A stretch of DNA of 64,000 bases, taken from IMG/VR virus record IMGVR_UViG_3300049595_005065; one strand, written 5' to 3'. A program made the position numbers and the translations under genes. Source of the DNA: a virus (Duplodnaviria > Caudoviricetes). Shown here in pieces: positions 1,255 to 63,365 of this stretch. The notes under the pieces were generated by a model. The model had not been told where the DNA came from. It was given only the letters and a program-made list of their open reading frames with translations, and did no database searches. The number at the start of each line of letters is the position of its first letter. Position 1 is the stretch's first letter.

Positions 1255-1706
1255 TGGCTAAAGAAAAGAAGGAAGCGGCCGCCGGTGCAGCCGACGGCGA
1301 AGCTGAAAAGATATCTTTCCATGCGGCCGTATTGAACCACGACGGCACGTATTTCACACAAGAGTTTGAAACCCTGGACGAGCTCGTGGCCTACCTCAAG
1401 GCCCGCGTCAATCAGGACGTCTCCGTGTTCGCGTTTCGCGGGACACGGTTGAAGATCTCCAAGCCCCCGATGCGCCACTTGCTCGTGCCCGGGCAGGAGC
1501 CGATCCCGCTGTTCGAGGCGCCGACGGACTTCGAGGAAGACGAGACGGGTTACCTGGGCGTCGACCCCATCAACCTCGAGGCCCCGCCACAGCTCAAGAT
1601 GCCCGGCGCAGGCCGCGCTCCGGCGCCTGCGGGCGAGGAGTTCTACGAGGATGACGACGGCGGGTTGAACGTTTTTGACTCCGTGCTTCCGGATCCGGAC
1701 AGCTAA
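1254..1706 (+). CDS. hypothetical protein
   Basis: 150-aa ORF, TGATG coupling, acidic C-terminus. Confidence 0.7.
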   Translation: MAKEKKEAAAGAADGEAEKISFHAAVLNHDGTYFTQEFETLDELVAYLKARVNQDVSVFAFRGTRLKISKPPMRHLLVPGQEPIPLFEAPTDFEEDETGYLGVDPINLEAPPQLKMPGAGRAPAPAGEEFYEDDDGGLNVFDSVLPDPDS

Positions 1707-1730
1707 ACCGCGGGCATTTTGCGGGCATAT
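1702..1730 (+). promoter_or_regulatory. putative phage promoter GCTAAA-N16-GGCATAT, copy 1
   Basis: Same bipartite motif and 16-nt spacer at 13196, 21183 and 22024, all at or near gene boundaries. Confidence 0.7.
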
Positions 1731-1809
1731 TAAGTGCCCACTGTGCTTGTGTTAAGCACGGATCCAATTCCGATATCGGGGCGTATGCCCGGAGAGGAGA
1801 CAGCATGCG

Positions 1810-2019
1810 GTGGCTCAATTTTTGACGCACAAAGGAAAGATCGTTCTCGAACAAATCGGCAACGGCGACACTGTGACCGTTCACTATCGAGGACAGCCAA
1901 AACCGGTGGTCGTCACCGGTGAAGATTGGAAGCAGAACAAGCGCTTCCAGCGGTATGACGAGAAGAAGCTGAAACGCCAACAAGCCTACGAGCTGTTCGA
2001 GGCTGGCAAATTGAAGTAA
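1810..2019 (+). CDS. hypothetical protein
   Basis: 69-aa ORF with GAGGAG upstream, downstream of the promoter motif. Confidence 0.65.
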   Translation: MAQFLTHKGKIVLEQIGNGDTVTVHYRGQPKPVVVTGEDWKQNKRFQRYDEKKLKRQQAYELFEAGKLK

Positions 2020-2043
2020 CTCTCCCTACGAAGGAGCATAGGT

Positions 2044-3566: not shown

Positions 3567-4529
3567 ATGAGCACGGCACAATACGCCGACCCGTCTCAAG
3601 TGCGCATGGAAAACGGCCGTTCTCTGGCCGACCTGATGCGCCGCGGGCCCGGCGGTTTAAGAGGTGTTGTTGTGGCCAAGTCGACGCCCGGTGGTTTGCC
3701 GGTCAACTACAACCCTCACGACCGCAGCCACCTCGAGGTCCACGTTGAGCCCGAGGGCGGCAACGCCGTGCTGACCATGGACCGGGTCACCTCTGAAGCC
3801 GTGGCGCAGGCGCTGGCCGTGGCAAACCAGGCTGTACAGGGAAACGACATTGATTCCATCCGGGAGCGCGCTGCCTTGGCATTCGAAGAACTGGCAAAGA
3901 TATCTAAGTCGGGCGTGAAGCGGGTGCCGGTCAAGAAAACGGCCGCGACCCCTCCGCCGCGCGAGTTCCGCGACGATGCCCCCGAAGTTACCGAGGAGCG
4001 CGAGATGCTCGAGGAGCTGGAGCAGGAGGTCGAAGCGCTGCGCAGTTTCGAGCAGCCCTTTCCGCGCCCCGCCGCTCCGCCCATCGAGAAGATCGACCGC
4101 GGCTACAGCCCCATGGCCGCTTTTGGCCTGAAGAAAGGTCCCATGGCTACGACCAGCGCGCCCGTTGTCGCCAAAAGTTCCACCAGCGGTCCGCCCCAGA
4201 AGCTCGTTTATTTCGAGAAGGAGGGCATCGGTACGGTTCCGGCCTTTTTCCACGACGTGCTCATTCACGTGGCGAGGCCCGAGCCGGACAGCCCCGAGGA
4301 ATCGGGATTTATCGTGCTGGTGTACGACGTGCGTTTTGAACAGTCGGCTGCCCGCTGGTTTCCGCCCAGTAACGATCCGTACGCGCGCCCTTGGGCCGCC
4401 AAGGTGAGCGACGACAACCGGCTGTATCTTGTTCATACCACGGGATTTCAGTACATTTACGATTCGCGGGAGTACTGTGTCCTGCGCGTGGAAAAAGCAC
4501 TCTGGGCGCCGGAAGGATCCGACGAATGA
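3567..4529 (+). CDS. hypothetical protein
   Basis: 320-aa ORF with a Pro/Glu-rich central linker. Confidence 0.8.
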   Translation: MSTAQYADPSQVRMENGRSLADLMRRGPGGLRGVVVAKSTPGGLPVNYNPHDRSHLEVHVEPEGGNAVLTMDRVTSEAVAQALAVANQAVQGNDIDSIRERAALAFEELAKISKSGVKRVPVKKTAATPPPREFRDDAPEVTEEREMLEELEQEVEALRSFEQPFPRPAAPPIEKIDRGYSPMAAFGLKKGPMATTSAPVVAKSSTSGPPQKLVYFEKEGIGTVPAFFHDVLIHVARPEPDSPEESGFIVLVYDVRFEQSAARWFPPSNDPYARPWAAKVSDDNRLYLVHTTGFQYIYDSREYCVLRVEKALWAPEGSDE

Positions 4530-6673: not shown

Positions 6674-7714
6674 ATGTGTGTTGGGATCTACACCCACTAC
6701 GCACACTGCGACCAGGCTTACCTTGCGGTGCGCCTTGTCTCGCTGTTGCGCACACTTGGCGAGCCCTTTGATATCTATTCGGACAACTCGCCCGGCAAGC
6801 TCAAGCTTCCCTACGACCGCTCGGTGAAGCACCGCGGGGTTGTCAAATACACCGACTGGGTCAAGAAGCGCCGCGCGGTGATCTGGACGCACGTGCCGCG
6901 GGTCGAGCAGATCGACTACGCCGCCCGTCGCGGTATTAAGACAATCGTGGTGCCCATGTGGCAGGAGATGCAACCGCCCTACAAAAAAGCGCTCAAGCAC
7001 GCCGACCACGTGATTGCCATGTTGAGCGAGTGCCGTGATTTGTTCATGGATGTGCACAAGCTCAATCATGTCTCGCTGATTCCGTTTGACACCGGGTTGC
7101 CAATAACCCGTAAGACCGAGTCGGTTAATCCCCGCAAGATTAGGCTGTTTCTGCCGTGGTTTGACCGGAACGCCCGATGTTCGTCAGGCCAATTTCTGGG
7201 CATGCTTGGTTACATCATTGAGCGCATGGAAGAGCCGCACCTCACGGTGGCCGTTAATTCAAGCCGGTTTGGTCCATCAGCCGCCAAATTTTTTCAGCGC
7301 CTAGGGGACCGCGTGAAGGGTCGTGTGACTCTAGTGCGCAACATTGCGCTGGTGCGGCGCTTTAACCTCTACACAAACGCTGATTTGACGATTTGGCCCG
7401 GGGAATGCGACAACTACGGCCTATGCGGGCTTTCCAGCCTGGCCGCAGGAACGCCCGTGCTCAGCCTGGCCCTTTCGCCCCAGACCGACTACCTCTACCA
7501 GGACGTCAACTCGGCCCTAGTCAAAACACGGGTCGATTACGATGATAATGGCGTTCCGCACGCGGTGCCGAACTACGAAAAGTTTGCCGCGGCGCTCCAG
7601 GAGCTGATTGCCGAACCGCGCCACATTAATTTGATGCAGAAGAAAGTGTCGTATAACCTGCCGTCGCGCAAGGAGGCGTTCGAGGGCGGGTGGCGCAAGC
7701 TTCTGGGTCTTTAA
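6674..7714 (+). CDS. GT-B fold glycosyltransferase-like protein
   Basis: C-terminal ADLTIWP...NYGLCGLSSLAAGTPVL resembles the GT4 E-x7-E region; ADHVIA in the N-lobe. Confidence 0.65.
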   Translation: MCVGIYTHYAHCDQAYLAVRLVSLLRTLGEPFDIYSDNSPGKLKLPYDRSVKHRGVVKYTDWVKKRRAVIWTHVPRVEQIDYAARRGIKTIVVPMWQEMQPPYKKALKHADHVIAMLSECRDLFMDVHKLNHVSLIPFDTGLPITRKTESVNPRKIRLFLPWFDRNARCSSGQFLGMLGYIIERMEEPHLTVAVNSSRFGPSAAKFFQRLGDRVKGRVTLVRNIALVRRFNLYTNADLTIWPGECDNYGLCGLSSLAAGTPVLSLALSPQTDYLYQDVNSALVKTRVDYDDNGVPHAVPNYEKFAAALQELIAEPRHINLMQKKVSYNLPSRKEAFEGGWRKLLGL

Positions 7715-7736: not shown

Positions 7737-8474
7737 ATGAACGTCGATTTGCCAATTCAGGAAACCGTCGCTTTTGCCCGGGAGCATTACCAGGACAAAG
7801 CCTCAGTTTACGAAAAGACACTGCTGGATCATTCTCTTTCCGTGGCGCGCATGGCCGAAAAAATCGCAATTAAGCTCTACAGCGACGTGCGCAAGGACCT
7901 GATTTCTGACGAGACCCAAGAAAGCGTGGCAGTCATCGTGCACAGCGCCGTGCTCCACGACCTGATCAACGTCAGCCGCTGCGCCTTTGAGCAGATCGCC
8001 GAGCGCACCACCGTGCAGGTCGCCGCCACAGTGGCCGACCTGAGCCGGGACTTCCGCCTGGTCGAGACAAAGCGCGACATGGAATACCGGGGGCGGCTCA
8101 GCCAGAGCGGCGTCAAGGCGCAGATCGTGGCCACGGCCGACATCATCTGCACCACGATGGAAGTGCTCAAAATGCTCAAGGGGGAAGGCGTGACAGCCGT
8201 GCCCCGGGCCCGTAAGATTCTGATGCAGCTGGATGGGGACCTGCTGGCTATTACCGCCGCGTCGCGCTTCTACCAGCTGCGGCTTTACACGCACGCGGCC
8301 CGAAATCACTTGCATGATGCCAGCCAACTGATAAAAGAGTGCAAAGCCGAGGCACGCGCTGCGCGCCAGTTTGCCAGCACCTCGGCCCGCATCGCTGCCA
8401 AGCGCAGCGCCGAAGAGAAACCCGCGAAGGAGAAGCCCAGTGCCAAAAAGCGAACTCGTCGACGAGATCCGTGA
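7737..8474 (+). CDS. HD-domain protein, RelA/SpoT hydrolase (Mesh1/SAH)-like, degenerate
   Basis: LDHSLSVA, SAVLHDLIN, VAATVADLS and AQIVATAD align by eye with the SpoT HD motifs. Confidence 0.6.
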   Translation: MNVDLPIQETVAFAREHYQDKASVYEKTLLDHSLSVARMAEKIAIKLYSDVRKDLISDETQESVAVIVHSAVLHDLINVSRCAFEQIAERTTVQVAATVADLSRDFRLVETKRDMEYRGRLSQSGVKAQIVATADIICTTMEVLKMLKGEGVTAVPRARKILMQLDGDLLAITAASRFYQLRLYTHAARNHLHDASQLIKECKAEARAARQFASTSARIAAKRSAEEKPAKEKPSAKKRTRRRDP

Positions 8475-8760
8475 AGACTTCATCAAGGCGCATCCGGACA
8501 CGGTTGCGCAGACGTTTAGCATCAACTACTTCTGCGCCTTCGTGATCGACTGGCTGGCCAAGCAGGGTATTCAGGGCATGGGCATGCAGGCCTCGGGCCT
8601 GGCTCTGCGATTGGCCGACGGGCGGCAGCTCGGGCTGATTGACACGGACAGCGCACCGATCACGGCCGACACGCCCTCGGTCGGCATCAACGCCATGCAC
8701 CGGGAAGACCCGCGCAGGATCTTGGGCGACTCGCCCAGCTTTGGCATCACTGGCCGATAG
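8440..8760 (+). CDS. hypothetical protein
   Basis: GTG start at 8440 preceded by AAGGAG, overlapping the end of the HD gene. Confidence 0.55.
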   Translation: MPKSELVDEIREDFIKAHPDTVAQTFSINYFCAFVIDWLAKQGIQGMGMQASGLALRLADGRQLGLIDTDSAPITADTPSVGINAMHREDPRRILGDSPSFGITGR

Positions 8761-8790
8761 ATATCTATTCACTTCCAACAAGGAGCCGCT

Positions 8791-9408
8791 GTGTTCGTCG
8801 TGTTCGAGGGAATCGACGGGGCTGGGAAAACCACCCAGGCCCGCATGTTGTACGAGCGCCTCAAGAGCGAGGGCGCGAAGGTCGAGCAGGTGGCCGACCC
8901 CGGCACGACCCAGATCGGCACGGCCATCCGGCAGATCCTGCTGCACAACGACGCGCCGATCAGCAATGCGGCCCAGATGCTCCTGTTCAGCGCCGCCCGG
9001 GCCGAGCTGGCGAACTACATCCGGGAGAAGCTCGCCGATAATTTCACAGTAATCTGTGATAGGTGGCTCCTCTCGACGCTCGTCTACCAGGGCGAGCTCA
9101 ACGGCATCGACCCGGAGTTCATCCTGAACGTCTTCCGGGAGACCTCCCACCTGATACCGGACATCTGCGTCCTCTTGGACATGCCAAGCGAGAACTCCGC
9201 CTTGCGCATCGGGAAGGGGCGCGACCGGTATGAACGGATCGACGCTGAGACCCGAACACGCATACGCCGGGCGTACATTCATCACTCCGGCAAGCGAGAG
9301 ATCTGCGAGCGGTTTTTCATGCTCGACGCCCTGCTGCTTCCCGACGAGGTCCATAAGCTCGTCTACAACGCGTATCAGTCCCGCAAATCGTCACCAGTCG
9401 CTGTCTAA
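8791..9408 (+). CDS. tmk: thymidylate kinase
   Basis: FVVFEGIDGAGKTTQ P-loop, LLFSAAR, ICDRW..S..VYQG. Confidence 0.95.
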   Translation: MFVVFEGIDGAGKTTQARMLYERLKSEGAKVEQVADPGTTQIGTAIRQILLHNDAPISNAAQMLLFSAARAELANYIREKLADNFTVICDRWLLSTLVYQGELNGIDPEFILNVFRETSHLIPDICVLLDMPSENSALRIGKGRDRYERIDAETRTRIRRAYIHHSGKREICERFFMLDALLLPDEVHKLVYNAYQSRKSSPVAV

Positions 9409-9423
9409 ATAGGGAGCACAAAC

Positions 9424-9969
9424 ATGTCGATAGTGCCGGTTAGAAAGCCTATGAAGAATCAGCTCTATTTCGACTTTGCGCGGGACGAAAAACATAAGGG
9501 TCACAGTGCGGTAAACCGCAAACCGCGCATCCGGAAAAACCCGATCGCGCGCCACTTGAAGAACGCGCCGAAAACGTCAGAATGCGGTGACGAACTTCGC
9601 GATTTGTGCGTATTACTGCACGGACTCGCGAAGAAGCATGTCGCAGCCGCGAACTTTCACGACTTCAACCTAGTGGCACGCTGCACAAAGCTGCTGCAGA
9701 CACTGGGCGTATCGGTGGAAGCTCCCGCGGAGATGCAGGCCGCTGTCTCCTGTCAGGAGGCCGCGCTCATCACCAGCGCGCCGGAATACCGCCTGCTGCG
9801 CAGCCGCGCCATGGCCGGGCTCGCCACCGTAGCCGACCTGGCTGACCGCCTCCCCTCAAAGGGGAGCGCCGAATACCAGCGGGGCATGTGTGACGCCTAT
9901 GAACAGGCAAGCACCATCGCGATTCTGTTCCTGGAAGACCTGGAAAAGTTTGAGACCAGGGGAAAGTAA
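9424..9969 (+). CDS. hypothetical protein
   Basis: 181-aa ORF with GGGAG upstream. Confidence 0.7.
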   Translation: MSIVPVRKPMKNQLYFDFARDEKHKGHSAVNRKPRIRKNPIARHLKNAPKTSECGDELRDLCVLLHGLAKKHVAAANFHDFNLVARCTKLLQTLGVSVEAPAEMQAAVSCQEAALITSAPEYRLLRSRAMAGLATVADLADRLPSKGSAEYQRGMCDAYEQASTIAILFLEDLEKFETRGK

Positions 9970-9971
9970 CC

Positions 9972-10286
9972 GTGCCGATCGTAACCAACGAGTTAGATAT
10001 CTTTGAGCTGCGGAACGACGTTCCGGCGGCCAATGGCCAAGACCAGCCGACGATTTTGCTTGAGTCGGGAACCTGGAACACCAAGACGGGCGACGTGACG
10101 GGAATCTGCGTTTCGGTGTTCGGCGACTTGGCGCCGATCATCTCGCCGACCGAGGCCCGCAAGGTGGCTAAATGGCTCGTCCGGGCGGCCGAAGAGCTGG
10201 AAGGCGCTAACGGCCGCAAGGCCCGCCCTGGCTCGAAGCCGTCGCACTACGAGCTCGACGACGACGGCGACGGCGCCGTTCGATAG
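9972..10286 (+). CDS. hypothetical protein
   Basis: 104-aa ORF with a GTG start. Confidence 0.65.
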   Translation: MPIVTNELDIFELRNDVPAANGQDQPTILLESGTWNTKTGDVTGICVSVFGDLAPIISPTEARKVAKWLVRAAEELEGANGRKARPGSKPSHYELDDDGDGAVR

Positions 10287-10287
10287 C

Positions 10288-10315
10288 TTGACGACCGCGC
10301 GGTCCCGGAGATAAT
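10288..10315 (+). promoter_or_regulatory. sigma70-like promoter TTGACG-N16-GATAAT
   Basis: Intergenic. A similar TTGACG-N16-TAGACT lies at 52344. Confidence 0.45.
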
Positions 10316-10346
10316 GCGGCATCTCGTTGTCTCCGGGAGCTAACCT

Positions 10347-10586
10347 GTGCTGACGCTTTCTTCTGCCGGGCTGTTCTTGTCCGGTTTTCTCACTGGTTTC
10401 CTGGCCTTCTGGCTGCGCTGGTACTTCCGGCCCAGCTGGGCTTCTGCTTTTCGGCGCCGAAAGCACTCGATGCGCCATCGGCAGGATTACCTGATTCGAA
10501 TCTCCGGCCGCGCGCGCCGCCAGATTCGCGGCCTGGGTTGTTACTACGGCCACCTCCCCAGGTTTTCTCGCCGCGAGTTTTTCTGA
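10347..10586 (+). CDS. small membrane protein
   Basis: Hydrophobic N-terminus followed by an Arg-rich tail; stop overlaps the tdk start. Confidence 0.5.
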   Translation: MLTLSSAGLFLSGFLTGFLAFWLRWYFRPSWASAFRRRKHSMRHRQDYLIRISGRARRQIRGLGCYYGHLPRFSRREFF

Positions 10587-13189: not shown

Positions 13190-13195
13190 CGCAGG

Positions 13196-13224
13196 GCTAA
13201 ACTGCGCGCGTTTTTCGGGCATAT
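13196..13224 (+). promoter_or_regulatory. putative phage promoter GCTAAA-N16-GGCATAT, copy 2
   Basis: Exact motif with a 16-nt spacer, about 40 nt upstream of an AGGAGG RBS and ATG. Confidence 0.7.
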
Positions 13225-13265
13225 TATCTGCTGCGTATGCTATTGCGCGGCAAACAGGAGGTGAC

Positions 13266-13778: not shown

Positions 13779-13805
13779 CGCCGTCTGTCGTTCTTCAAAA
13801 CAAAT

Positions 13806-13839: not shown

Positions 13840-13904
13840 ATGGGCGAAACTCGTCGTTTCGTCGCGATGGCTGGGTTAGATATCTTTCCACGGAGGGGGA
13901 CATC

Positions 13905-51578: not shown

Positions 51579-51620
51579 TAGATATCTTTCCCGACAGCCA
51601 CGGAAAGGAACCCGGGCGTT

Positions 51621-53691: not shown

Positions 53692-54154
53692 GCCGCGACG
53701 TTACCTTTGTTGCGTAGCCAGCGCGGTAGTTGCGCGATATTTCGGAGCCGCATAGACTTTTCGAAATGGTTCATACCCCACACGGAGGGCACACGCGGGA
53801 AAGTCGCAGGGAGGCGGTTCGACATCGGCTGCATTCGCTTCATGCGGCCGCGCCGAGTCGAAAAGAGTACTTGCGAAAGCGGTCTTCCGAACCGGGCCGT
53901 CTTTGCACTCCATCGGGCAGCCGGGGTGCCGGGATGCTGCGCAAAGATATCTTTGCGCGCTTAACGCTGGTAGCTGGGTTCCTAGCGCCGTCCGAGCGCG
54001 TCCTTCGCCCCTACGCAACACGAGCACAAGCGGGACACGAGCGGTCCTGCTGCCAGCGCCCAGCCCGCCTCGCACAAATAACCGCACAACGACGAGGGGC
54101 GACCCTCGCGCAAGCGCCCAAGGGACTGGGCGCGTTCTTTGGGGCACGGAAACT

Positions 54155-54601
54155 ATGCACGGGCAGAACCTTCCGCGCACGCCGCAAATGGTCGGCCAGG
54201 CGGGCGCGCACCACGCGGCAGCGCAGTTACTGAAACACGGGATTATTTCAGCGTTTCCCAACGTTGACGTGGGTTACGACCTGCTGACTGACGCAGGAGG
54301 TACGCTGCGGCGCGTCCAGGTAAAAACAGAGCTGGTTGGCGTGAAGGGGCGGCCCGAGTTGCGGCAGCTGCGATATAGTCTGCGTCGTCGCAAAGGCAAG
54401 AAATTGTCTCCCGAGGACACGACAAATCTGGACAAGCGCTACACAACAGACATGATTGACGCGATGATTTTTGTGACCTTCCGTCACGATACCTTGTTCA
54501 TCGTACCGGCAGCGGAAATCGATTTCACGCGGGATTGGATTTATTACTCGCAACTGCACCTCTGGGAAAACGCCTGGTGGGCGCTGACACAAGGAACGTG
54601 A
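54155..54601 (+). CDS. PD-(D/E)XK endonuclease (free-standing, intron-associated type)
   Basis: GYDLLTD...RRVQVKT, Y....IDAMIFV. Confidence 0.75.
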   Translation: MHGQNLPRTPQMVGQAGAHHAAAQLLKHGIISAFPNVDVGYDLLTDAGGTLRRVQVKTELVGVKGRPELRQLRYSLRRRKGKKLSPEDTTNLDKRYTTDMIDAMIFVTFRHDTLFIVPAAEIDFTRDWIYYSQLHLWENAWWALTQGT

Positions 54602-54605
54602 AGGT

Positions 54606-56180
54606 ATGCGCATCCTGGCGCTGACTGTATCCGACCGGTTGTTCTTTTCCGGGACGCTGGCGGCGGTGAATTCGCTGCTGCACTACACCCGAGATTGGCC
54701 CGCGGACTGGCAGTTGGACATCGCCGTCGTGTCGAGCGGCCATTACAACCAGGCCCTCACCGAGCAGCAGCGCGAGCTGCTCAAGCACGAGCGCATCCGG
54801 GTCTATGCGCACGAGTTCTTCCAGGCGCCGCAACGCGTACCCGGCGCGTGGCAGCTCAAGGCCTACGCGGCGCATGACCTGTCCTGTGAATATGATTTTC
54901 TGGTCGGGTTCGATTCCGATTTGGTGTTTGCCAGCGACGTGCGCGACGTGATTGCGCAGTGCCAGGCGGACGGGAAGTTTCGGGGCGGCAAGGACGGCAA
55001 CGGCGTTCGTTACGGCAAGGAATACGCGCCGTACGGCATCGCAGCGGGCGAGACCGGGCCGTACATGTCGACCTCGTGTTACTTTTGCCCGCTCACGCCG
55101 GAAAATCGCGAAATCCTGGCCGACTGGGCGCTCAAGACGAACCAGGCGGCATACGGCCCGCAGGCAGAGAAGCGCTATGTCGGCCACGGCGACCAGGGCG
55201 TGCTCAACTCGGTGATCTTCGCCCGCACGCGCAGCCAGAACGTGGAGCTGTTGCCCAACGAGACCTGGAGCCAGCACTGGCGTTACGAGAGCGACGTGGT
55301 GGCCTGGGATGGCGCGCAGTTGATCAACTACACCGCCCGAAAGTTGCCCATGCGCGCGCTGCATTGCGGCGGCAGCGACAAGTTTTGGGCGGCAGCTCAC
55401 GCCGAAAAGCGGCTGGAGAAAGGCCAGAGCCAGCGCTGGGGTTATGCGCATTTCTTGCGCTTCTTGCATTTTGGCGCGCTTTCGGTCTGGAAACGTGACC
55501 CGCTCCAGTACATCCCGGCCGAGCAGCAGCACCTGTTTCGGGACGCACTGAACTACTGGCCGCTCATGTTTGCATTGGCGCCCGAAGTGGCGGATTGCTG
55601 GGGCGAGCTTTCTCCGGCGTGGCTGTCGCGGGCGATCGAAGCAGGCAACATTCACCGGATGATGTCCTTGCATGCCGACGGTTCAGGCTCGATGAACCAG
55701 TACATCTCGCTGGCGCGGCGCGTGAAACACGGCGGCACGCTTGTCGAGGTCGGCTCGTACCTGGGCGGCTCCGCCGTCACTGTGGCCGCGGCGACGCGCG
55801 ACCGGCAGCTGCGCGTGATTTCGGTTGAGTCCTTTGCGGGGAATCTCAACAACATGGTGGACGGGCACCCGCTGCCGTCAATCAACAGCTACGTGCGGCA
55901 GGTTAAAACCACGTTTCCGTTTCTGAATGTCGACGCTGTTCCCTTGCCCGGCGAGCTGGCCGTATCGCAGTTTGCCGACGGGTCGCTTGACATAGTTTTT
56001 ATTGATGGCGACCATAGCACGCCCGCGGTGCTGCGCGACATCGATGTCTGGTGGCCGAAGGTTGCGCCGGGCGGAATCCTGGCCGGTGACGACTACGACT
56101 GGAAGACTGTCGCGGAAGCAGTGGCGCAGCGGTTCCCGACCGCAGAGCATCAGAGCTGTGTGTGGTGGACACAAAAATGA
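54606..56180 (+). CDS. GT8-like glycosyltransferase fused to class I SAM methyltransferase
   Basis: FDSDLVF and HGDQGVLN in the N-terminal part; VEVGSYLGGS, IVFIDGDH and GGILAGDDY in the C-terminal part. Confidence 0.8.
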   Translation: MRILALTVSDRLFFSGTLAAVNSLLHYTRDWPADWQLDIAVVSSGHYNQALTEQQRELLKHERIRVYAHEFFQAPQRVPGAWQLKAYAAHDLSCEYDFLVGFDSDLVFASDVRDVIAQCQADGKFRGGKDGNGVRYGKEYAPYGIAAGETGPYMSTSCYFCPLTPENREILADWALKTNQAAYGPQAEKRYVGHGDQGVLNSVIFARTRSQNVELLPNETWSQHWRYESDVVAWDGAQLINYTARKLPMRALHCGGSDKFWAAAHAEKRLEKGQSQRWGYAHFLRFLHFGALSVWKRDPLQYIPAEQQHLFRDALNYWPLMFALAPEVADCWGELSPAWLSRAIEAGNIHRMMSLHADGSGSMNQYISLARRVKHGGTLVEVGSYLGGSAVTVAAATRDRQLRVISVESFAGNLNNMVDGHPLPSINSYVRQVKTTFPFLNVDAVPLPGELAVSQFADGSLDIVFIDGDHSTPAVLRDIDVWWPKVAPGGILAGDDYDWKTVAEAVAQRFPTAEHQSCVWWTQK

Positions 56181-57163
56181 GTGACGGCGCGCGAAAGATA
56201 ATCTTCCGCAACTGGCAGAGCCCGGGCGACATCGTGATGCTGCTCTTCGCCATCAAGAGCCTTCACGACAGCTACCCCGGGCAGTTCATCACGGACGTCC
56301 GCTGCCCGGCCCGCGAGATCTTCGAGGGCTCGCCGTACATCACGCCGCTTAGCGAGAACGACCCCGGCGTGGTGATGCTCCAGGCCGAGTATCCGACAAT
56401 CCACCGGAGCAACACGCACCCGGTGCGGTTCTCCACGGCCTTCGCCGAGCACATCGCGCAGATGCTCAACCTGCGCATCCAGCCGTGCCAGTTTCATAGC
56501 GTAATCGAGATCACGCCCGCGGAGCAGGGCTGGCTGAGCGCCGTCCACGAGCTGCTGGGCCGCGACGTGCCGTACTGGATTATCAACGCCGGGCACAAGA
56601 GCGACTTCACGGCCAAGGCCTGGGACTTCGAACGCTACCAGGCGCTGGTCGACCGGTTTCCCGGTGTCTGGTTCGTCCAGGTCGGCGCCAAGGAGCACAC
56701 CCACCCGGAACTCAAGGGTTCGAACCTGCTCAACTTCGTTGGCAAGACCGACACCCGGCAGCTGATCCGCCTGGTCTGGCACTCCTTCGGCGTGATCTCC
56801 GGCGTGAGCTTCCCGATGCACCTAGCCTATGCTGTGCCGCCTCATCCGCGGTTCAACCGGAAGAGCCGGGCCAACATCACGATCGCCGGGGGCCGCGAGC
56901 CCGCGCACTGGGAAGAGGGGCCCAACCACCATTACCTGCACACCTGCGGCATGCTCTCCTGCTGCGACATGGGCGGCTGCTGGAAGAGTCGCGTGGTGCC
57001 GCTGGACGACGGCGATAGCAAGAACAACAGCCTGTGCGTCGCGCCGGTGATGCTGCCTACAGGGCAGTGGATTGGCCGCTGCATGGAGATGATCACCGTA
57101 GATGACGTGGCGAGCATCATCGAGAAATACATGACCAACCTGGAGTACGAACCCAAATCGTGA
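56177..57163 (+). CDS. GT9 (heptosyltransferase-like) glycosyltransferase
   Basis: SPGDIVML, AKAW, FVQVG, NFVGKTDTRQL, SFPMHLA, Cys-rich C-terminus. Confidence 0.75.
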   Translation: MSDGARKIIFRNWQSPGDIVMLLFAIKSLHDSYPGQFITDVRCPAREIFEGSPYITPLSENDPGVVMLQAEYPTIHRSNTHPVRFSTAFAEHIAQMLNLRIQPCQFHSVIEITPAEQGWLSAVHELLGRDVPYWIINAGHKSDFTAKAWDFERYQALVDRFPGVWFVQVGAKEHTHPELKGSNLLNFVGKTDTRQLIRLVWHSFGVISGVSFPMHLAYAVPPHPRFNRKSRANITIAGGREPAHWEEGPNHHYLHTCGMLSCCDMGGCWKSRVVPLDDGDSKNNSLCVAPVMLPTGQWIGRCMEMITVDDVASIIEKYMTNLEYEPKS

Positions 57164-57420
57164 GTGACTTTAGCTGGACGACCGCCCTGACGGTGTTCGT
57201 CGTGTACGTGTTCTTTGACATTCTCTACGCTCTGTACGTTTTGTGCGTCAGTCGGAAGCAGGCTTTTACTTCCAGCGCGATCAGCGCTGTTCTGTACAGC
57301 CTGGGGGCTTACGGCGTTCGAAGCTACATGGACAACCCCTGGTATCTGATCCCTTTGGCGTGCGGCGCCTTCCTGGGCACTTATATCGCCGTTAAATACA
57401 TGGGAGACCTGCACGCATGA
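57160..57420 (+). CDS. small multi-pass membrane protein
   Basis: Three hydrophobic helices. Confidence 0.65.
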   Translation: MSDFSWTTALTVFVVYVFFDILYALYVLCVSRKQAFTSSAISAVLYSLGAYGVRSYMDNPWYLIPLACGAFLGTYIAVKYMGDLHA

Positions 57421-57839
57421 CGCCCCGCCGCGACACCACAATCGCTTTAGATTTTGACTGCACGTTCACCTCGGACATCGAATTTTGGCGGCTGTTTGTG
57501 CGGCTCTGCGCCAAACGGGGCCACAAGGTCGTTCTGGTCACGGCGCGCTTCGACACGATCGAGAACCGCGTCCTGGTCGCCGACGTGCTGGGCCGCGCGA
57601 CTTTTGAGCTTCTTTCGGGCGCAGTATTTACCGGCCGCCAACCCAAACGCCCCGTCGCTGAAGAGCAGGGCTTCAGGATCGACATCTGGATCGACGACCT
57701 GCCGGAGTTTGTGGGAGACGCCAGTCTTGAGCTGCTTGAGACGATTAAGTCGCAGCAGTCGATCTTTGAGACCCTGCCCGTTGTTTCCATGGGCGCCGTG
57801 GACCCAAACGCCGTCTGGGAGCCCAACTGTGAACAATGA
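57417..57839 (+). CDS. HAD-superfamily hydrolase
   Basis: IALDFDCTF, LVTAR, IWIDD. Confidence 0.75.
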   Translation: MTPRRDTTIALDFDCTFTSDIEFWRLFVRLCAKRGHKVVLVTARFDTIENRVLVADVLGRATFELLSGAVFTGRQPKRPVAEEQGFRIDIWIDDLPEFVGDASLELLETIKSQQSIFETLPVVSMGAVDPNAVWEPNCEQ

Positions 57840-58155
57840 GACTGTCTATTTGCTCTTAGCCTTCGCGCTGGGCTACCTGACCGGCCGGGCCGACTCCCTG
57901 TACCGTGCGCTGCGGGACCGCTACGCCCCGCCGCCCAAGGCCGGGTTCTTTGCCGACGCCCCGCGGGCCGAGCGCGAGCTTGCGCCGCGGCAGGCTCCAA
58001 AGATATCTATTGACGAGCGAAAGGTCGTCTCGGAAATCAGCACGGCGGGCATCGAGCGGTCCGAGCAGGCCGCCCAGCAGATTGGGACGAAAACCGTGCA
58101 GTCTGATAACATCGACGCGTCAGTCAGCAAACTGGCGCAACTCAAAGGGAGATAA
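57829..58155 (+). CDS. N-terminally membrane-anchored protein
   Basis: GTG start; YLLLAFALGYLTG TM helix; ends 2 nt before the actin-like gene. Confidence 0.65.
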   Translation: MNNETVYLLLAFALGYLTGRADSLYRALRDRYAPPPKAGFFADAPRAERELAPRQAPKISIDERKVVSEISTAGIERSEQAAQQIGTKTVQSDNIDASVSKLAQLKGR

Positions 58156-58157
58156 TC

Positions 58158-59189
58158 ATGGCCAAGGGTCTCGACGTCGGTACTTCGTTCATCGTGCTCG
58201 CGCAGGACGCCAAGGAGAACACCACGACTAGCACGACGCAGGTCGGGCAGGTCGAGTACAAGGATTTCCGCGACGCGTTTTACGTGATCAAGCCGACGAC
58301 CCCCGTGGCCACGAAGATGATCGAGAAGGGCCTGACCGGGCGAGTCTTCGTGAAGGACGAGGACGGCAGCTTCATCATCCTGGGTAAGGATGCCATCGAG
58401 AAGGCCATCGAGCGCAACGACTCAGCGAAGCGCCCCATGCACAAGGGCGTGGTCAGCGTGAAAGAGAAGGCCGCCCAGCGGGTCCTGGCCTACATCCTCA
58501 AGGAAGTGGCCGGGAAGGCCGCGCAACCCGGCGAGAAGCTCGTGTTTTGCATTCCGGCGCAGCCCGTCGACCAAGAAGACGAAGACTTCGACGTCGGTTA
58601 CCACGAGGACGTCGTCACGCGAATCCTGGGCGAGTGTGGCTACGAGGCCCGGGCGATCAACGAAGCTGAAGCCCTGTGCTACTCGGAGCTGGAGAACGAC
58701 GACTACACCGGGCTGGCGCTCTCCTGCGGCGCCGGAATGGTGAACTGCTGCGTGATGCTCAACGGCGAACCAACCGTGATGTTCTCGACCACCAAGAGCG
58801 GCGACTGGATCGATCGGATGACCGCGGTGGCCACCGGCGAGCCGGACAGCGTCGTTCAGGCCGAGAAGGAGCACGGCGAGTTTACGATCGGCCAGCCCAA
58901 CGCCAGCGCGATCCTTTCGGCCGTCTCAAGCTACTACGAGCGGCTTATCGACTACACGACCAAGCAGCTCGCTGCGGCCATGGCGGGCCACAAGCTGCTC
59001 CCCAAGTTCAAGAATCCACTCCCGGTAGTCATTGCCGGTGGCACCAGCCAAGCCAAGGGCTTTGTGCCACGGTTTCATGAGAAGCTCGTCGAGAACGGCT
59101 TCCCGATCGCGATCAAGGAAGTCCGGCACGCCAAGGATCCGCTCCACGCCGTGGCCCGTGGCTGCCTGGTTGCCGCCAAGATCCTGTGA
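58158..59189 (+). CDS. actin-like ATPase (MreB/ParM/MamK superfamily)
   Basis: Phosphate-1 GLDVGTS, connect-1 NEAEA, phosphate-2 SCGAGMVN, SGDWID, adenosine IAGGTS, connect-2 PLHAVARG. Confidence 0.85.
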   Translation: MAKGLDVGTSFIVLAQDAKENTTTSTTQVGQVEYKDFRDAFYVIKPTTPVATKMIEKGLTGRVFVKDEDGSFIILGKDAIEKAIERNDSAKRPMHKGVVSVKEKAAQRVLAYILKEVAGKAAQPGEKLVFCIPAQPVDQEDEDFDVGYHEDVVTRILGECGYEARAINEAEALCYSELENDDYTGLALSCGAGMVNCCVMLNGEPTVMFSTTKSGDWIDRMTAVATGEPDSVVQAEKEHGEFTIGQPNASAILSAVSSYYERLIDYTTKQLAAAMAGHKLLPKFKNPLPVVIAGGTSQAKGFVPRFHEKLVENGFPIAIKEVRHAKDPLHAVARGCLVAAKIL

Positions 59190-59196
59190 GAGGGAC

Positions 59197-60165
59197 ATGG
59201 AAGACCGTGGTCGGTTGGAGCGCTACTATCGCGCGCTCGAGACGAAGAGCCTCGATCGGCTAGTGGGCTGCTCTTACTATCCGATGTGGCTGCACGGCCG
59301 CAAGGACCGCTGGGTGTACTGCAACCCGAGCATAGCCCGCCACCCCGACGGCGGTTTCGTGTCGCTGGTGCGGTACTCCAGCTGGCCGCGCGTCACGGTG
59401 GTTTACCCGGTCCATTCCGACCTGGTGTTGGCGCGCCTGGACGACGACTACAACGTCGTGTCCATGAAGCCGCTGGCGGAACCAAAAAGACAAGTCGACA
59501 CGTCATTCAAGCAAACTTACGGGCCCGAGGATGCGCGGCTGTTCCGGTTGAAGGGGCGGTGGTACGCCACGGCTACGTTTTTTGACGTGCCCGAGTGCCG
59601 CGTCGACTCCAACGTGTTTGCGCGGATGGGTCTGCTCGAGTTTGACGAGGACTTCAACTGGACGGACCTGACGGTGCTGCCGTGCCCTTTCAAGCAGCAC
59701 GAAAAGAACTGGATGAACATTGAAGGCGAGATGGCGTGGCTTTACTCGGCGCACGACACCCGAGTGGCCCGCTACAACTTTGAGACGCGGCTGCTGGGCT
59801 ACTACTACCCGCAGCCGACGCCGGAAATTATGCAGCACGCCCGAGGTAGTTCGCAACTGATCGACATTGGCAAAAACAGGCTTCTGGGCGTTGTGCATGA
59901 GTCCGTCCAGGAGGTTCCCACGCGGTCCTATATTGGAAGCTACCGCGCGTACAGCCATCGATTTGTGCTTTACTCCCGCGAACCGTTTGAGCTGAAGGCC
60001 GTTTCCGAGCTGTTCCATTTCTTTGCCCCCGGGCACGTCGAATTTGCCGCGGGCCTCGCCGCCGCAGATGCGCGTCTTGTGGTCTCGTTCGGCCACCACG
60101 ACAGCTGGGCCTGGCTGGCGGCCATGAAGCTTGACAACGTGCTTAACGTTCTAAACCCCGTCTAG
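59197..60165 (+). CDS. five-bladed beta-propeller glycoside hydrolase-like protein (GH130-like)
   Basis: CNPSI, GPEDARLF, EKNWM, RGSSQ, EFAAGL. Confidence 0.65.
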   Translation: MEDRGRLERYYRALETKSLDRLVGCSYYPMWLHGRKDRWVYCNPSIARHPDGGFVSLVRYSSWPRVTVVYPVHSDLVLARLDDDYNVVSMKPLAEPKRQVDTSFKQTYGPEDARLFRLKGRWYATATFFDVPECRVDSNVFARMGLLEFDEDFNWTDLTVLPCPFKQHEKNWMNIEGEMAWLYSAHDTRVARYNFETRLLGYYYPQPTPEIMQHARGSSQLIDIGKNRLLGVVHESVQEVPTRSYIGSYRAYSHRFVLYSREPFELKAVSELFHFFAPGHVEFAAGLAAADARLVVSFGHHDSWAWLAAMKLDNVLNVLNPV

Positions 60166-60172
60166 GCGCCTT

Positions 60173-61273
60173 ATGTACGACGTGCTACTGGTTGGCGCCG
60201 GGTTGTTCAGCGCAGTCTTTGCGCGCCAGTGCCTCGACGCAGGGCGCAAGGTGCTGGTCATTGAGCGGCGGGCGCATCCGGGCGGCAACTGCTACACGGA
60301 GCGGCGCAACGGCATCGACGTTCACGTCTACGGGCCGCACATTTTCCATACCAGCAGCGCGCGCATCTGGGATTACGTGCGGCAGTTTGCAAACTTTAAC
60401 AACTTTGTGAACCGGCCCAAGGTTCATTACAACGGCCGCCTGTACTCTTTTCCGATCAACCTGTTCACTCTCTACCAACTTTGGGGTGTTCAGACCCCCG
60501 AGGAGGCCCGGCGCAAGCTGGACGAGGTGCGCGTCCCGATCGAGAACCCGGCCAACCTCGAAGAATGGGTGCTTTCCCAGGTCGGCGAAGAGATCTACGG
60601 CGTGTTTATTCGCGGGTACACGCAAAAGCAGTGGATGCGCGATCCGCGGCAGCTCCCCGCGAGCATTATTCGCCGCCTGCCCATCCGGCTCACCTTCGAC
60701 GACAACTACTTCAACGACACGTTTCAGGGCATCCCCGAAGACGGCTACACGGCCCTGCTGCAACGCTTGCTGGACGGGGCGACGATCGAGCTGGAGCAGG
60801 ATTACTTCGCCGCGCGGGAGGCCTGGGACGCACGAGCGCGGACGGTGGTGTTCACCGGGCGGCTCGACCAGTTTTACGACCACCGGTTCGGGCCGCTCGA
60901 ATACCGCACGCTCCGGTTCGAGCATGAGCAGCACGCCGTCGAGGATTACCAGGGCAACGCGATCGTGAACTACACGGCGGCCGACGTTCCGTATACTCGT
61001 GTCGTTGAGCACAAGCATTTCTCAGGCGCTCGGTCGCCGCTCACGCACATCACGCGCGAGTACCCGGTCGCCTGGGAGCCGCAATCCGTGCCGTACTACC
61101 CGATCTCCGACGCCGCCAACACGGCCAAGTACGAGCAGTACGCCGCGCTGGTCAAGTTGGAAAGGAAACACCTGTTCGGCGGCCGCCTGGCGGAGTACCG
61201 CTACTACGACATGCACCAAGTGATCGGCAGCGCACTGACCGCCGCCGCCAAGTACCTGGAAAACCGCCCATGA
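60173..61273 (+). CDS. glf: UDP-galactopyranose mutase
   Basis: VGAGLFSA, HPGGNCY, HVYGPHIFHT, QGIPEDGYT, YYP, GRLAEYRYYDMHQVI. Confidence 0.95.
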   Translation: MYDVLLVGAGLFSAVFARQCLDAGRKVLVIERRAHPGGNCYTERRNGIDVHVYGPHIFHTSSARIWDYVRQFANFNNFVNRPKVHYNGRLYSFPINLFTLYQLWGVQTPEEARRKLDEVRVPIENPANLEEWVLSQVGEEIYGVFIRGYTQKQWMRDPRQLPASIIRRLPIRLTFDDNYFNDTFQGIPEDGYTALLQRLLDGATIELEQDYFAAREAWDARARTVVFTGRLDQFYDHRFGPLEYRTLRFEHEQHAVEDYQGNAIVNYTAADVPYTRVVEHKHFSGARSPLTHITREYPVAWEPQSVPYYPISDAANTAKYEQYAALVKLERKHLFGGRLAEYRYYDMHQVIGSALTAAAKYLENRP

Positions 61274-62733
61274 TTTACAAGCCCGACGTTCTGCCGGTCT
61301 GCATCACCTACACGGCCGACTTCCAGAAAATGGTGAACCACGCCTGCTCGACGCTGGCGCACCCGAAGATCCAGCTCCATTTGAATCAGGTGACGCTTGA
61401 CGAGAGCTACGAGGGTTTTCGCAGCGCGGGGTGGTTCGAGTGCCTCAAGCGGAAAATGCTGTTCTTCTACGATTTCATGTCGAAGCTGCCTCTCAACGCG
61501 GTGGCCTGCTCGATCGACGGCGACATCCAGTTCTTCGACGCCGACGCGCTGTACAACCTGAAGGACCGCCTCGCACGCTCGTCGCTGTGCTGCTACGGCC
61601 AGGCTGAGCACTGGCTGGAGGAGCCCAACCGCCGCAAGTCGCGCGTAGCGAACGGCGGCTTTTTCATGATGAAAAAAACGCCAGCGGTGATGCGCTGGCT
61701 CAAGACCGTGCTGAGCCAGAATTACACCACGCAGTACCTGGGAGACCAGGAATTTCTCAATCACTTTCTGCAAAAACAACGCGTCCCTTACGTGTTGCTT
61801 CCGCCCCAGCAGTTCATGCACGGCGGCCCCATCGCGGAGAAGACCGAGAACTTTGTCGACCCGGTGCGGCTAGTGATGCACCACGCCACTTGGGCGACGA
61901 ACGTTGACGACAAGCAGAAGCAGATGAACATCGTGCGCGAGCTGTGCAACTTGCCGCCGGTGGACTGGGACAACGTTCAGCTGAAGAACCCGAACGTTGT
62001 GTATTACCTGAACGGTGATTCGCGCGGCCGAATGCCGCCGCTCAAGCACCCCAACGCCCTGGTGCTGGCGCGGTACAACGAAGATCTCTCTTGGGCGGAG
62101 CCGTGGACCGACAAGCTGGACGTGTTCGTCTACAACAAGGGCGCGCCGTATCCGGGCAAACTGAACGCGAACTGGTCCACCCTGCCCAACGTCGGCCGCG
62201 AGGCGCATACCTACCTGACGCACATCATCGACAACTACGACCGGCTGCACGACGTGACGATTTTTCTGCAGGGTCGGATTGACGACTGCCACGCGTACCC
62301 GGCGGACCAGCTCGAGCGGTACATCGCGCCCGCCAAGGAGCACGGATTCAGCGCCAGCCAGTTCATTCTGGTGCGGCCGGAGTACTGGAACGGCATCGAG
62401 TTCATGAAGCTCCAAAAATACGCTCCCCAGGTGCGCAGCGGCGCGCTCAAGCTCTACAAGCCTGGCATGCTTTCCTACATCCGGGAGCACGTTGGAAAGA
62501 TCCCGGTGACCATGGCGATCACCTATTGCGGCTGCTTCGCCGCAAGTCGAGAAGCCATCTGCCGCCACCCGGTGTCTTTCTACGAGCAGCTGCGCAAGAC
62601 CGTTTCGCACCACAGCGGACCGGAAGAGGCGCACTTTCTGGAGCGGCTCTGGGCGTACATTTTCAGCGGCACGGCTTACGTGCCGCAGCTCCTGCGCATT
62701 CCGCCCCAGCACCGAGACAAGTTTCTTTACTGA
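61270..62733 (+). CDS. nucleotide-diphospho-sugar transferase fused to DUF3431-like domain
   Basis: DGDIQF, NGGFF, GDQEFLN; then ARYNEDLSW and LPNVGREAHTYLTHIIDNYD. Confidence 0.75.
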   Translation: MIYKPDVLPVCITYTADFQKMVNHACSTLAHPKIQLHLNQVTLDESYEGFRSAGWFECLKRKMLFFYDFMSKLPLNAVACSIDGDIQFFDADALYNLKDRLARSSLCCYGQAEHWLEEPNRRKSRVANGGFFMMKKTPAVMRWLKTVLSQNYTTQYLGDQEFLNHFLQKQRVPYVLLPPQQFMHGGPIAEKTENFVDPVRLVMHHATWATNVDDKQKQMNIVRELCNLPPVDWDNVQLKNPNVVYYLNGDSRGRMPPLKHPNALVLARYNEDLSWAEPWTDKLDVFVYNKGAPYPGKLNANWSTLPNVGREAHTYLTHIIDNYDRLHDVTIFLQGRIDDCHAYPADQLERYIAPAKEHGFSASQFILVRPEYWNGIEFMKLQKYAPQVRSGALKLYKPGMLSYIREHVGKIPVTMAITYCGCFAASREAICRHPVSFYEQLRKTVSHHSGPEEAHFLERLWAYIFSGTAYVPQLLRIPPQHRDKFLY

Positions 62734-63365
62734 TGCCGCTTGATTACCGTCACATACCGGCTTTTTGCATCAACCTCGAGCGCCGTTTGGACCGGTGGGC
62801 GCTGGCGGCGCAGGAGTTTGCGCGGCTCGGTCTATCCGTAACGCGTTGGCCCGGCGTGGAGTACACAGCGTCGCCCTACCCTGCGCTGCGCCCGGGCCAG
62901 GCCGGATGCCTCGACAGCCACAAGCAGATTTGGCGGCACGTGCTCGAGAACGGCTGGCCTGCGGCGATGATCTTCGAGGACGACGTCATCTTTTCTAGCG
63001 ATTTCAAAGATATCTTTTCCGCCGCGGCGCTGGAGCTGCCCGGGGACTGGGACGTCTGGTCGTTGCACGCCACGCACGCCCAGGTGACGCTGCGCGTCCA
63101 ATATGTCGCCGCGCTGCGCGGCTCGCTCTGGGGGACGCACGGTTATCTTGTTTCGCCGCGCGGCTGCACGCGGCTGCTGGCGCTTCCCGACGACCAGCCG
63201 GTGGACTACCGCATCAGCCCCGTGCTCACCGATTGCGGGGGCGCCGTGTACGGAATCCCTGTCGAGCGCGCCATTGTATTTCAGCGCGGGGGAGAGGATA
63301 GCGACATTCAGGTCACTGACCAGAATGATTTCTGGCGCCGTCAGCGCGCGCGCTATTGCCGCTAA
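62733..63365 (+). CDS. GT25-family glycosyltransferase
   Basis: CINLERRLDR, GCLDSH..IW, IFEDDV, THGYLVS. Confidence 0.85.
   Translation: MPLDYRHIPAFCINLERRLDRWALAAQEFARLGLSVTRWPGVEYTASPYPALRPGQAGCLDSHKQIWRHVLENGWPAAMIFEDDVIFSSDFKDIFSAAALELPGDWDVWSLHATHAQVTLRVQYVAALRGSLWGTHGYLVSPRGCTRLLALPDDQPVDYRISPVLTDCGGAVYGIPVERAIVFQRGGEDSDIQVTDQNDFWRRQRARYCR

Follow-up and report, generated by a model that had tools for sequence, protein, structure and literature searches.

The nearest described case to the element reported here is the dyad repeat of the Cluster O mycobacteriophages (Corndog), a 17 bp sequence (TGTTCGG-N3-CCGAACA) that occurs 34 times in 70 kb (14 copies intergenic, ten near the 5' ends of genes and ten in genes) and shows no orientation (PMC4351075). 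These repeats are mostly not at promoters; a dimeric binder has been predicted and the function is unknown (PMC4351075). Here, we describe an array of 26 copies of a palindrome centred on GATATC in a stretch of 64 000 nucleotides (the window) from IMG/VR virus record IMGVR_UViG_3300049595_005065, which belongs to an uncultured freshwater (lake) jumbo phage with a genome of ~200 kb. As in Cluster O, an exact dyad-symmetric repeat occurs in more than 30 copies per genome and is spread genome-wide (26 in 64 kb), with a mixture of intergenic and intragenic copies that are unoriented and mostly away from promoters. The present motif is unrelated in sequence and has no spacer, and a ~200 kb freshwater phage is compared with a 70 kb Mycobacterium siphovirus. 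Copies written in rare codons, even spacing, a symmetric change of specificity and relatives that lack the motif have not been reported for Cluster O, and it is the coding cost, the even spacing and the lineage-specific retuning that are new here.

Other known systems share single traits with this array. The KorB OB sites of the IncP plasmid RK2 and the ParB–parS systems use palindromic sites of 13–16 bp, some of them remote from promoters, where a dimer is loaded and then acts at kilobase distance, with a specificity that is private to each replicon. However, parS sites occur in small numbers and in clusters, and RK2 carries 12 OB sites, whereas the present array comprises 40–55 over-dispersed sites per genome, and no ParB_N domain (PF02195) was detected in five relatives at E ≤ 0.01. 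Chi and matS/MatP are also short motifs maintained at one per few kilobases by selection on the DNA, including inside genes, but Chi is 5–8 nt long, asymmetric and oriented, while the present motif is a palindrome of 12–18 bp, and matS is confined to one chromosome domain, while the present motif is genome-wide. The motif shares its central hexamer with the EcoRV-type restriction site, which a symmetric dimer recognizes; plain GATATC occurs here no more and no less often than expected, and only the A/T-flanked form is in excess. Unlike a type II restriction target, which would be avoided, the motif is enriched ~100-fold, and no D12 methyltransferase was found in the relatives. The stoperators of Cluster A phages, bound by the L5 gp71 repressor, likewise comprise dozens of short sites in spacers and genes (PMC4351075), but they are asymmetric and oriented with transcription, whereas the present sites are palindromic with symmetric flanks; they belong to temperate phages with a known repressor, and here no repressor or integrase turned up, although no search was aimed at them.

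Counts and sequence of the motif

The exact octamer AGATATCT occurs 21 times in the window, compared with a mean of 0.17 (maximum of 2) in dinucleotide-preserving shuffles. This recount reproduces the 21 cores of the first-pass annotation, and its rough estimate of 0.2 expected copies and ~100-fold enrichment agrees with the shuffle. Two A/T letters stand on either side of all 21 exact copies, as had been read previously. Five further copies are altered only at the outer octamer letter or letters: TGATATCT at 6769, 28618 and 46834, AGATATCA at 21165 and TGATATCA at 35778. All five had been listed as one-letter variants and all are real, but at 35778 both flanking letters are changed. Together, the 26 copies all match WWWGATATCWWW. 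GATATC itself is found 32 times (4.4 expected by chance), and exactly six of these, close to the earlier estimate, fall outside the motif class; they have G/C flanks and are at chance level (6 versus 4.4). Because A/T-flanked GATATC is in excess and G/C-flanked GATATC is at chance, the enriched object is WWWGATATCWWW. Its consensus is c-A-W-A-GATATC-T-W-T-g (cAWAGATATCTWTg), 12–14 bp in length; each of the twelve central positions carries ~1.2–2.2 bits of information, and the flanking position on either side ~0.3 bits.

Nine of the 21 exact copies lie wholly within open reading frames (ORFs) and use all three frames (K-I-S, x-D-I-x and Q-R-Y-L). Two further exact copies overlap a TAG stop codon, and the previous count of ten copies in coding sequences in three frames was thus about right. 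The two longer palindromes noted at that time are also real: 53939–53958 is a perfect palindrome of 20 bp and 40923–40956 is a palindrome of 34 bp with one mismatch.

The motif in related phages

A total of 37 related viral contigs were found via the SNF2-type helicase encoded in the window, and ten records were compared. Of these, G002, G003 and G004 (complete) and G001 (96% complete) are genomes of ~200 kb each; G005, G006, G008, G009, G011 and G015 are partial. The closest relatives share the motif, and its form changes symmetrically with lineage. G002 has the octamer of the window in 42 copies and G001 has TGATATCA in 31 copies (extended form CTCAWTGATATCAWTGAG), in each case against ~1.5 expected per strand; the total numbers of sites are 49 and 40, respectively. 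Both half-site types, often in one site, are present in G006 and G015, at 3.8 and 2.5 sites per 10 kb. These four genomes and the window make up the high-density group (n = 5). A looser form, WGATATCW, occurs at ~1 per 10 kb in G003 and G011, while in G004, G005, G008, G009 and others, several of them equally related phages, the motif is at chance level. No other dispersed palindrome, gapped palindrome or repeated 10–12-mer was found in the motif-free relatives.

In a tree of the helicase, the window, G001, G006 and G002 form a clade (support 100/98) in which G001 is sister to the window, and the helicase is 85% identical between very close sister phages that differ in motif specificity. The sister position of G001 implies that the change at position −4 (A to T) and at +4 (T to A) happened recently, probably by way of intermediates that tolerated either letter. 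This change is visible at individual orthologous sites: where the window, G002 and G015 have AAAGATATCTTT, G001 has TTTGATATCAAA, and a site 143 nt into one gene encodes GKDIYS in G002 and LNDINE in G001 (K-D-I-Y to N-D-I-N). At a site 551 nt into another gene the left half alone has changed.

Individual positions are less stable than the array. Eight of the 14 alignable window sites are kept in G002 (flank identity 69–87%), and five of the 20 alignable G002 sites are kept in G001, which is near the 18–21% of flank 12-mers with unchanged central six letters. With five of 20 sites kept while the totals remain 49 and 40, the density is conserved among the relatives and the positions turn over.

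Selection on the DNA sequence

To judge the in-gene copies, synonymous codons were permuted inside each gene, which preserves every protein and the per-gene codon usage. In the window, nine in-gene copies are observed and 0.40 are expected (maximum of 3 in 200 shuffles). The corresponding values are 30 observed and 2.4 expected in G002, 17 and 1.6 in G001 (for its own octamer) and 33 and 5.8 in G003; in the motif-free relative G004 they are 5 and 4.4. The in-gene copies make use of codons that are rare in the window (ATA is 4% of Ile, AGA is 2% of Arg and TCT is 10% of Ser).

Comparison of orthologous codons shows the motif arising by synonymous choice. The helicase segment Q/R-R-Y-L is encoded by CAA AGA TAT CTT in the window and G002 and by CGG CGG TAC CTC (R-R-Y-L) in G003, and the helicase segment S-L-I-S-L is encoded by AGT TTG ATA TCT TTG in the window, compared with AGC CTG ATC TCG in G002. 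Some copies are created by an amino-acid change, for example P-K-I-S-I in place of x-K-I-D-I in relatives. Since the synonymous-codon shuffles give 0.40 in-gene copies against the nine observed, codon bias is excluded as a cause, as is peptide bias, which is what the first-pass annotation had argued from the use of three frames; the motif is kept by selection on the DNA itself.

Placement and spacing of the sites

In the window 14 of the 26 sites are not fully inside a called gene, and only ~10% of its DNA is non-coding. The corresponding fractions are 17/49 in G002 and 17/40 in G001; overall, 35–54% of sites fall in the 8–10% of the DNA that is non-coding. When seven genomes are pooled, the 150 nt upstream of gene starts contain 74 of the 187 sites, against 31 expected, with no excess just inside genes. 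Among the 73 non-genic sites, 29 begin −5 to +9 nt from the upstream stop codon and 22 end 10–30 nt before the next start codon, and the motif often includes the stop codon itself (TAG in aTAGATATCT; TGA in TGATATCA of G001). This overlap with stop codons and the nearness to the next start mean that the sites occupy the minimal spacers between genes, at no cost; elsewhere they enter ORFs, mostly in the frame xxA GAT ATC Txx, which needs the fewest rare codons.

The mean gap between sites in the window is 2.5 kb (26 sites), and overall one copy is met per 2–5 kb. The coefficient of variation (CV) of the gaps is 0.67 in the window, 0.59 in G002 and 0.66 in G001, compared with ~0.95 for uniform placement. 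Under a stricter model, in which the numbers of coding and non-coding sites of each genome are held fixed, the observed CV of 0.49–0.67 compares with 1.01–1.06 expected (P ≤ 0.002 in each of five genomes), and gaps shorter than 500 bp number 0–1, against 3.4–6.5 expected. The array had been described as a lattice with a period of about 3 kb. The mean gap and the evenness beyond chance bear this out in part, but with a CV of 0.67 there is no strict lattice; the spacing consists of mutual avoidance together with a scarcity of long empty stretches.

The 26 sites in the window are as follows (strand '.' throughout).
1307–1318: site AAAGATATCTTT, in ORF 1254–1706 (GAA AAG ATA TCT TTC); identical codons in G002
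3896–3907: site AAAGATATCTAA, in ORF 3672–4529, K-I-S frame; kept in G002
6767–6778: variant TTTGATATCTAT, in ORF 6728–7714 (F-D-I-Y)
8757–8768: site ATAGATATCTAT, its TAG the stop of ORF 8440–8760; thymidylate kinase start 25 nt on; kept in G002
9993–10004: site TTAGATATCTTT, in ORF 9972–10286, 23 nt from its start
13876–13887: site TTAGATATCTTT, intergenic, preceded by a terminator-like hairpin; the start at 13905 is 20 nt on; kept in G002
16176–16187: site ATAGATATCTTT, intergenic; the stop at 16168 lies 10 nt before
18120–18131: site ATAGATATCTAA, intergenic, in the ~35 nt repeat upstream of the AAA ATPase gene 18181–19290
19309–19320: site ATAGATATCTAA, intergenic, in the second copy of the ~35 nt repeat, downstream of the AAA ATPase gene
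21163–21174: variant TTAGATATCAAA, 10 nt upstream of a promoter-like element, GCTAAAT-N15-GGCATATCT
22507–22518: site ATAGATATCTTT, intergenic; the start at 22579 is 63 nt on
24034–24045: site AAAGATATCTTT, in ORF 22579–24066 (K-D-I-F), 23 nt before the ORF end
25949–25960: site AAAGATATCTTT, in ORF 24093–26366 (K-I-S)
27030–27041: site AAAGATATCTTT, in ORF 26896–27654 (K-I-S)
27686–27697: site ATAGATATCTAT, intergenic; the start of the SNF2-type helicase is 28 nt on; kept in G002 and G006
28616–28627: variant TTTGATATCTTT, in the helicase gene (AGT TTG ATA TCT TTG); kept in G015, while relatives encode S-L-I/L/M-S using other codons
29446–29457: site AAAGATATCTTT, in the helicase gene (CAA AGA TAT CTT); kept in G002, G015 and G006
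35577–35588: site ATAGATATCTTT, its TAG the stop of ORF 35179–35580; tRNA-Met next
35776–35787: variant TTTGATATCATT, intergenic; the start at 35823 is 38 nt on
40934–40945: site AAAGATATCTTT, centre of the one-mismatch 34 bp palindrome, after the gene for a 1503-residue virion protein
45948–45959: site AAAGATATCTTT, intergenic; the stop at 45929 is 21 nt before
46832–46843: variant TTTGATATCTAT, in ORF 46661–46918 (F-D-I-Y)
51578–51589: site ATAGATATCTTT, intergenic, 2 nt past a stop, with the start of PhoH 34 nt on; kept in G002 and G006
53943–53954: site AAAGATATCTTT, centre of the perfect 20 bp palindrome; kept in the window, G002, G015 and G001
57999–58010: site AAAGATATCTAT, in ORF 57829–58155 (P-K-I-S-I; relatives x-K/D-I-D/E-I)
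63006–63017: site AAAGATATCTTT, in the GT25 glycosyltransferase gene 62787–63365

Symmetry of the motif and a separate promoter-like element

The variable mirror positions of the motif (W at ±5 and the outer positions) are complementary in 13 cases in the window, compared with 10.7 under independence, and the corresponding values are 21 and 19.0 in G002 and 22 and 21.8 in G001. There is thus no covariation within copies, and the other letters are fixed in identity, beyond mere pairing. The copies are A/T-rich and lack a T run as a rule, and the test for a hairpin or intrinsic terminator was negative. Because the variable mirror positions do not covary, the palindrome does not appear to be a hairpin signal, and the pattern is best matched by a dimer on double-stranded DNA, each subunit of which would read one half-site independently of the other. 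No direction-dependent flank is visible; in G001 the motif is symmetric out to 18 bp.

A second, promoter-like consensus, GCTAAAT-N15-GGCATAT(T/C), is asymmetric, lies on the coding strand in spacers and is common to all of the relatives, including those that are motif-free. Copies in the window are located at the following positions.
21183–21220: promoter-like consensus, coding strand
22024–22060: promoter-like consensus, coding strand

This consensus is often preceded by TAGCTATCAGCG, following a terminator-like hairpin. In some cases in G003, in G001 and at window position 21165 the palindrome lies 2–10 nt upstream of it, whereas none of the six intergenic copies in G002 has an adjoining palindrome. 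Compared with a sigma-type promoter, the palindrome lacks asymmetry, and the separate asymmetric consensus would fill the promoter role.

The best-conserved site and a candidate cassette

Site 53943 is the sole copy that is kept in position in four of the five high-density genomes; at this place G001 reads TTTGATATCAAA and G006 reads AGAGATATCTTT, a near-site that fails the WWW rule. It forms part of the following element.
53780–54070, + strand: structured RNA-like element of ~290 nt, with site 53943 in an apical stem and a terminator-like hairpin near 54100–54130

The element is 79–87% identical in nucleotide sequence across the relatives. Three aligned copies fold to −110 kcal/mol, with 11 pairs kept via changes on both sides, and no Rfam family matches it. 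Besides the window, G002 and G001, a covariance model found it only in G015 and G006, so that its distribution is exactly the five high-density genomes. The element may belong to the motif system.

A PD-(D/E)XK endonuclease gene (PF11645, a homing-endonuclease family) at 54155–54601 lies beside the element in the window, G002 and G015, and in G001 the corresponding locus (126362–126946) encodes an HTH-HNH endonuclease in its place. Elsewhere, the AAA ATPase gene 18181–19290 has no orthologue in four relatives and is flanked by direct repeats of ~35 nt that each hold a site; the region 18085–19379 resembles a cassette gained by insertion or exchange. Where relatives differ in gene order, a gene junction is about three times as likely to hold a site (5% versus 13–18%, p about 0.01), an effect that weakens once spacer length is controlled (p = 0.05–0.25).

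Candidates for the reader protein and the host

A Pfam pass over 103 G002 proteins (50–300 residues, shared with G001) returned only sigma domains, a DUF1016_N protein, CsrA and enzymes. Matches to HTH_24/MarR turned out to be sigma region 4 or the HNH endonuclease; with respect to a repressor, there was no HTH_3 match, these two were the only HTH matches and about half of the proteins had no family. The PD-(D/E)XK nuclease was rejected as the reader as its presence does not follow the motif (it is missing in G001 and present in the motif-free G005). Nor does it form a restriction–modification pair with the neighbouring methyltransferase, which is linked to a glycosyltransferase-like region; proteins of the Methyltransf_24 family resemble TylF and are either fused to glycosyltransferases or encoded next to them. 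Atlas searches with two proteins restricted to the clade returned nothing.

The 12-mer class was not enriched in 301 bacterial genomes (from the order of a Comamonadaceae metagenome-assembled genome, freshwater-typical) or in five other bacteria. Counts in these 306 genomes were 0–16 each, equal to those of the reversed-pattern control. The comparison speaks against a host-derived signal only in part, and is a weak test because the true host was not identified. The best matches of the Glf gene are at 50–61% identity and are scattered over many phyla. In a 14-mer scan of viral contigs, the matches listed were mostly A/T-rich chance occurrences.

Interpretation of the array

We consider the copies to be putative twofold-symmetric binding sites of a homodimeric sequence-specific protein that binds double-stranded DNA and would act over kilobase territories, with a probability of roughly 0.55. 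The observations beneath this reading are the motif itself, the DNA-level selection, the even spacing, the symmetric retuning and the lack of hairpin covariation; the protein, its dimeric nature, its phage origin and its territorial mode are what we infer from them. A genome would carry ~40–55 high-affinity sites per 200 kb (26 in the window), with one subunit reading each half-site (c)AWAGAT independently. Selection favours one site per few kilobases irrespective of the particular genes: sites are set where they are cheapest, at stop codons or in the short spacer ahead of a ribosome-binding site, and where no spacer is available they are written into the ORF by rare codons or even by amino-acid changes. 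They avoid one another below ~0.5 kb, and their positions turn over while the density is kept. Each site may serve a territory of a few kilobases, anchoring or nucleating a protein that would loop the chromosome, spread along it or mark it, for the purpose of genome organization, self-identification or global transcription control.

The reader is probably phage-encoded. The first-pass annotation had proposed a dedicated phage DNA-binding or modifying protein that would serve compaction, partitioning, packaging or protection; a dimeric sequence-specific reader is indeed the most economical explanation, but no phage protein could be assigned, and modification or nicking has no support. Several observations count against the reading proposed here. 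ParB_N, HU/IHF, HTH_3 and D12 methyltransferase domains were not detected in five relatives, and the DUF1016_N protein, tried as the reader, lacks a nuclease domain and is just as well conserved in the motif-free G004. Among the relatives compared, the presence or absence of the motif is matched by no DNA-binding gene: the G002 genes that track it encode glycosyltransferases, a collagen-like protein and a 61-residue acidic protein, and the others that follow it encode thymidine kinase and small acidic proteins, which is probably a signal of the clade and not of function. The ~40% of sites within 150 nt upstream of a gene start, and those that abut the promoter-like element, could be explained by a transcriptional role. 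Finally, the reader may be encoded by the host.

Transcription is the most serious of the alternatives. The sites could be promoter cores or activator or repressor sites for a virion-carried phage RNA polymerase, spaced along the unidirectionally transcribed genome in the fashion of T7 promoters and T4 late promoters, and the excess of sites upstream of gene starts, the 22 of 73 non-genic sites that end shortly ahead of a start codon, the several sites 2–10 nt upstream of the GCTAAAT-N15-GGCATAT element, the location of nearly all genes on one strand and the virion proteins of the related phage Arash (described below) are all in keeping with this. We nevertheless regard it as unlikely, given that the motif is symmetric to 18 bp in G001 without a directional flank and changes symmetrically between lineages, that the separate asymmetric consensus is present in all relatives and stands beside no palindrome in G002, that half or more of the sites are deep in ORFs, that positions turn over fast and that the motif is missing from phages that are equally related and have the same polymerase. 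A transcriptional role for a subset of the sites is possible; it does not explain the whole array. A host nucleoid protein or global regulator, recruited by the sites or titrated by them as decoys, with the differences between sister phages reflecting their hosts, would account for the patchy presence of the motif among relatives and for the absence of a phage DNA-binding gene with the same distribution. This seems doubtful, as decoys would not require even spacing on the kilobase scale, very close sister phages (helicase 85% identical) differ in specificity and the bacterial genomes showed no enrichment, weak as that test is.

Somewhat more doubtful still is that the sites are targets of a dimeric phage endonuclease or nickase that starts recombination, replication or cassette exchange. 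The frequency of sites at rearranged junctions, the site-bearing direct repeats around the gene at 18181–19290, which no relative carries, and the PD-(D/E)XK and HNH endonuclease genes adjoining the best-conserved site suggest such a role, but the junction effect is weaker after control for spacer length, the PD-(D/E)XK gene does not follow the motif and no metagenome contig ends or is joined at a site, although nicks would not be visible in contigs. It is highly improbable that the palindrome works as an RNA hairpin, a processing or protein-binding signal in the one-strand transcripts. All copies are transcribed in the same sense, two lie within longer palindromes and the A/T swap of G001 preserves pairing, and yet the variable mirror positions do not covary within copies, most copies would give a stem of only 4–5 bp of A/U and the letters are fixed beyond what pairing demands.

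A more speculative reading, to which we attach little weight, is that the array is a lineage-private identity mark by which the reader tells its own DNA from that of the host or of a co-infecting sister phage. Such a mark would account for the joint retuning of both half-sites in close relatives via dual-accepting intermediates. Such a reader may work with the RNA-like element at 53780–54070, the conserved copy of which switches type with the genome.

Genome context and other features

The genome has a GC content of 60–65%, and 74 of 75 genes in the window are on the + strand (simple codon-usage gene caller). A nucleotide search against deposited phages gave no match. Proteins encoded in the window include the SNF2-type helicase, collagen-like and other fibre proteins and the 1503-residue virion protein. 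The best deposited relatives of the helicase are from Pseudanabaena phage PA-SR01 and Salmonella phage Arash, and in Arash virions an RNA polymerase, a sigma factor and this helicase type have been detected (PMC10585845).

The sequencing runs listed as containing the phage are DNA runs in contig form, with no RNA run among them. Metagenome contigs from lake water (four runs, dated 2016, 2020 and 2024) differ from positions 13001–30000 at two bases in 17 kb. With so few differences across these dates, the same phage persists or recurs in lake water, and for the same reason the contigs are uninformative on site conservation. They have no ends or joints at sites and are incapable of showing nicks or transcript ends. 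The summed depth is very high over the transfer-messenger RNA (tmRNA) region, presumably from bacterial tmRNA genes; the phage-encoded tmRNA itself is at 16900–17247 (121 bits, tag peptide GTFNSAPALAA), and a tRNA-Met is located at 35591–35663.

An actin-fold protein, with small ORFs before it, is encoded at 58158–59189 (Pfam Volactin, E = 5e-62) and is 78–81% identical in motif-bearing and motif-free relatives. A glycan-building cluster (54606–63365) encodes a TylF-type methyltransferase fused to a glycosyltransferase-like region, GT9, UDP-galactopyranose mutase, Nucleotid_trans with DUF3431, and GT25; several genes of the cluster are restricted to the motif-bearing clade. Genes for nucleotide metabolism and signalling are found at 7737–11167, 17772–18074, 46108–46419 and 51621–52337, and encode an HD domain, thymidylate kinase, thymidine kinase, a cREC_REC receiver domain, MazG and PhoH; thymidine kinase is absent from the motif-free G004.

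Significance

Dispersed dyad repeats of unknown function have already been reported in phage genomes, and the present case makes the question of their role testable. The relatives form a natural series, with one motif, an altered motif, both half-sites or none, that permits an association search for the reader. There is clear evidence here of a coding cost paid for one site every few kilobases, and the spacing points to action over kilobase distances rather than at single promoters. If a reader does organize or mark the 200 kb genome, the array would represent a new kind of chromosome-level system in a virus without the known jumbo-phage devices.

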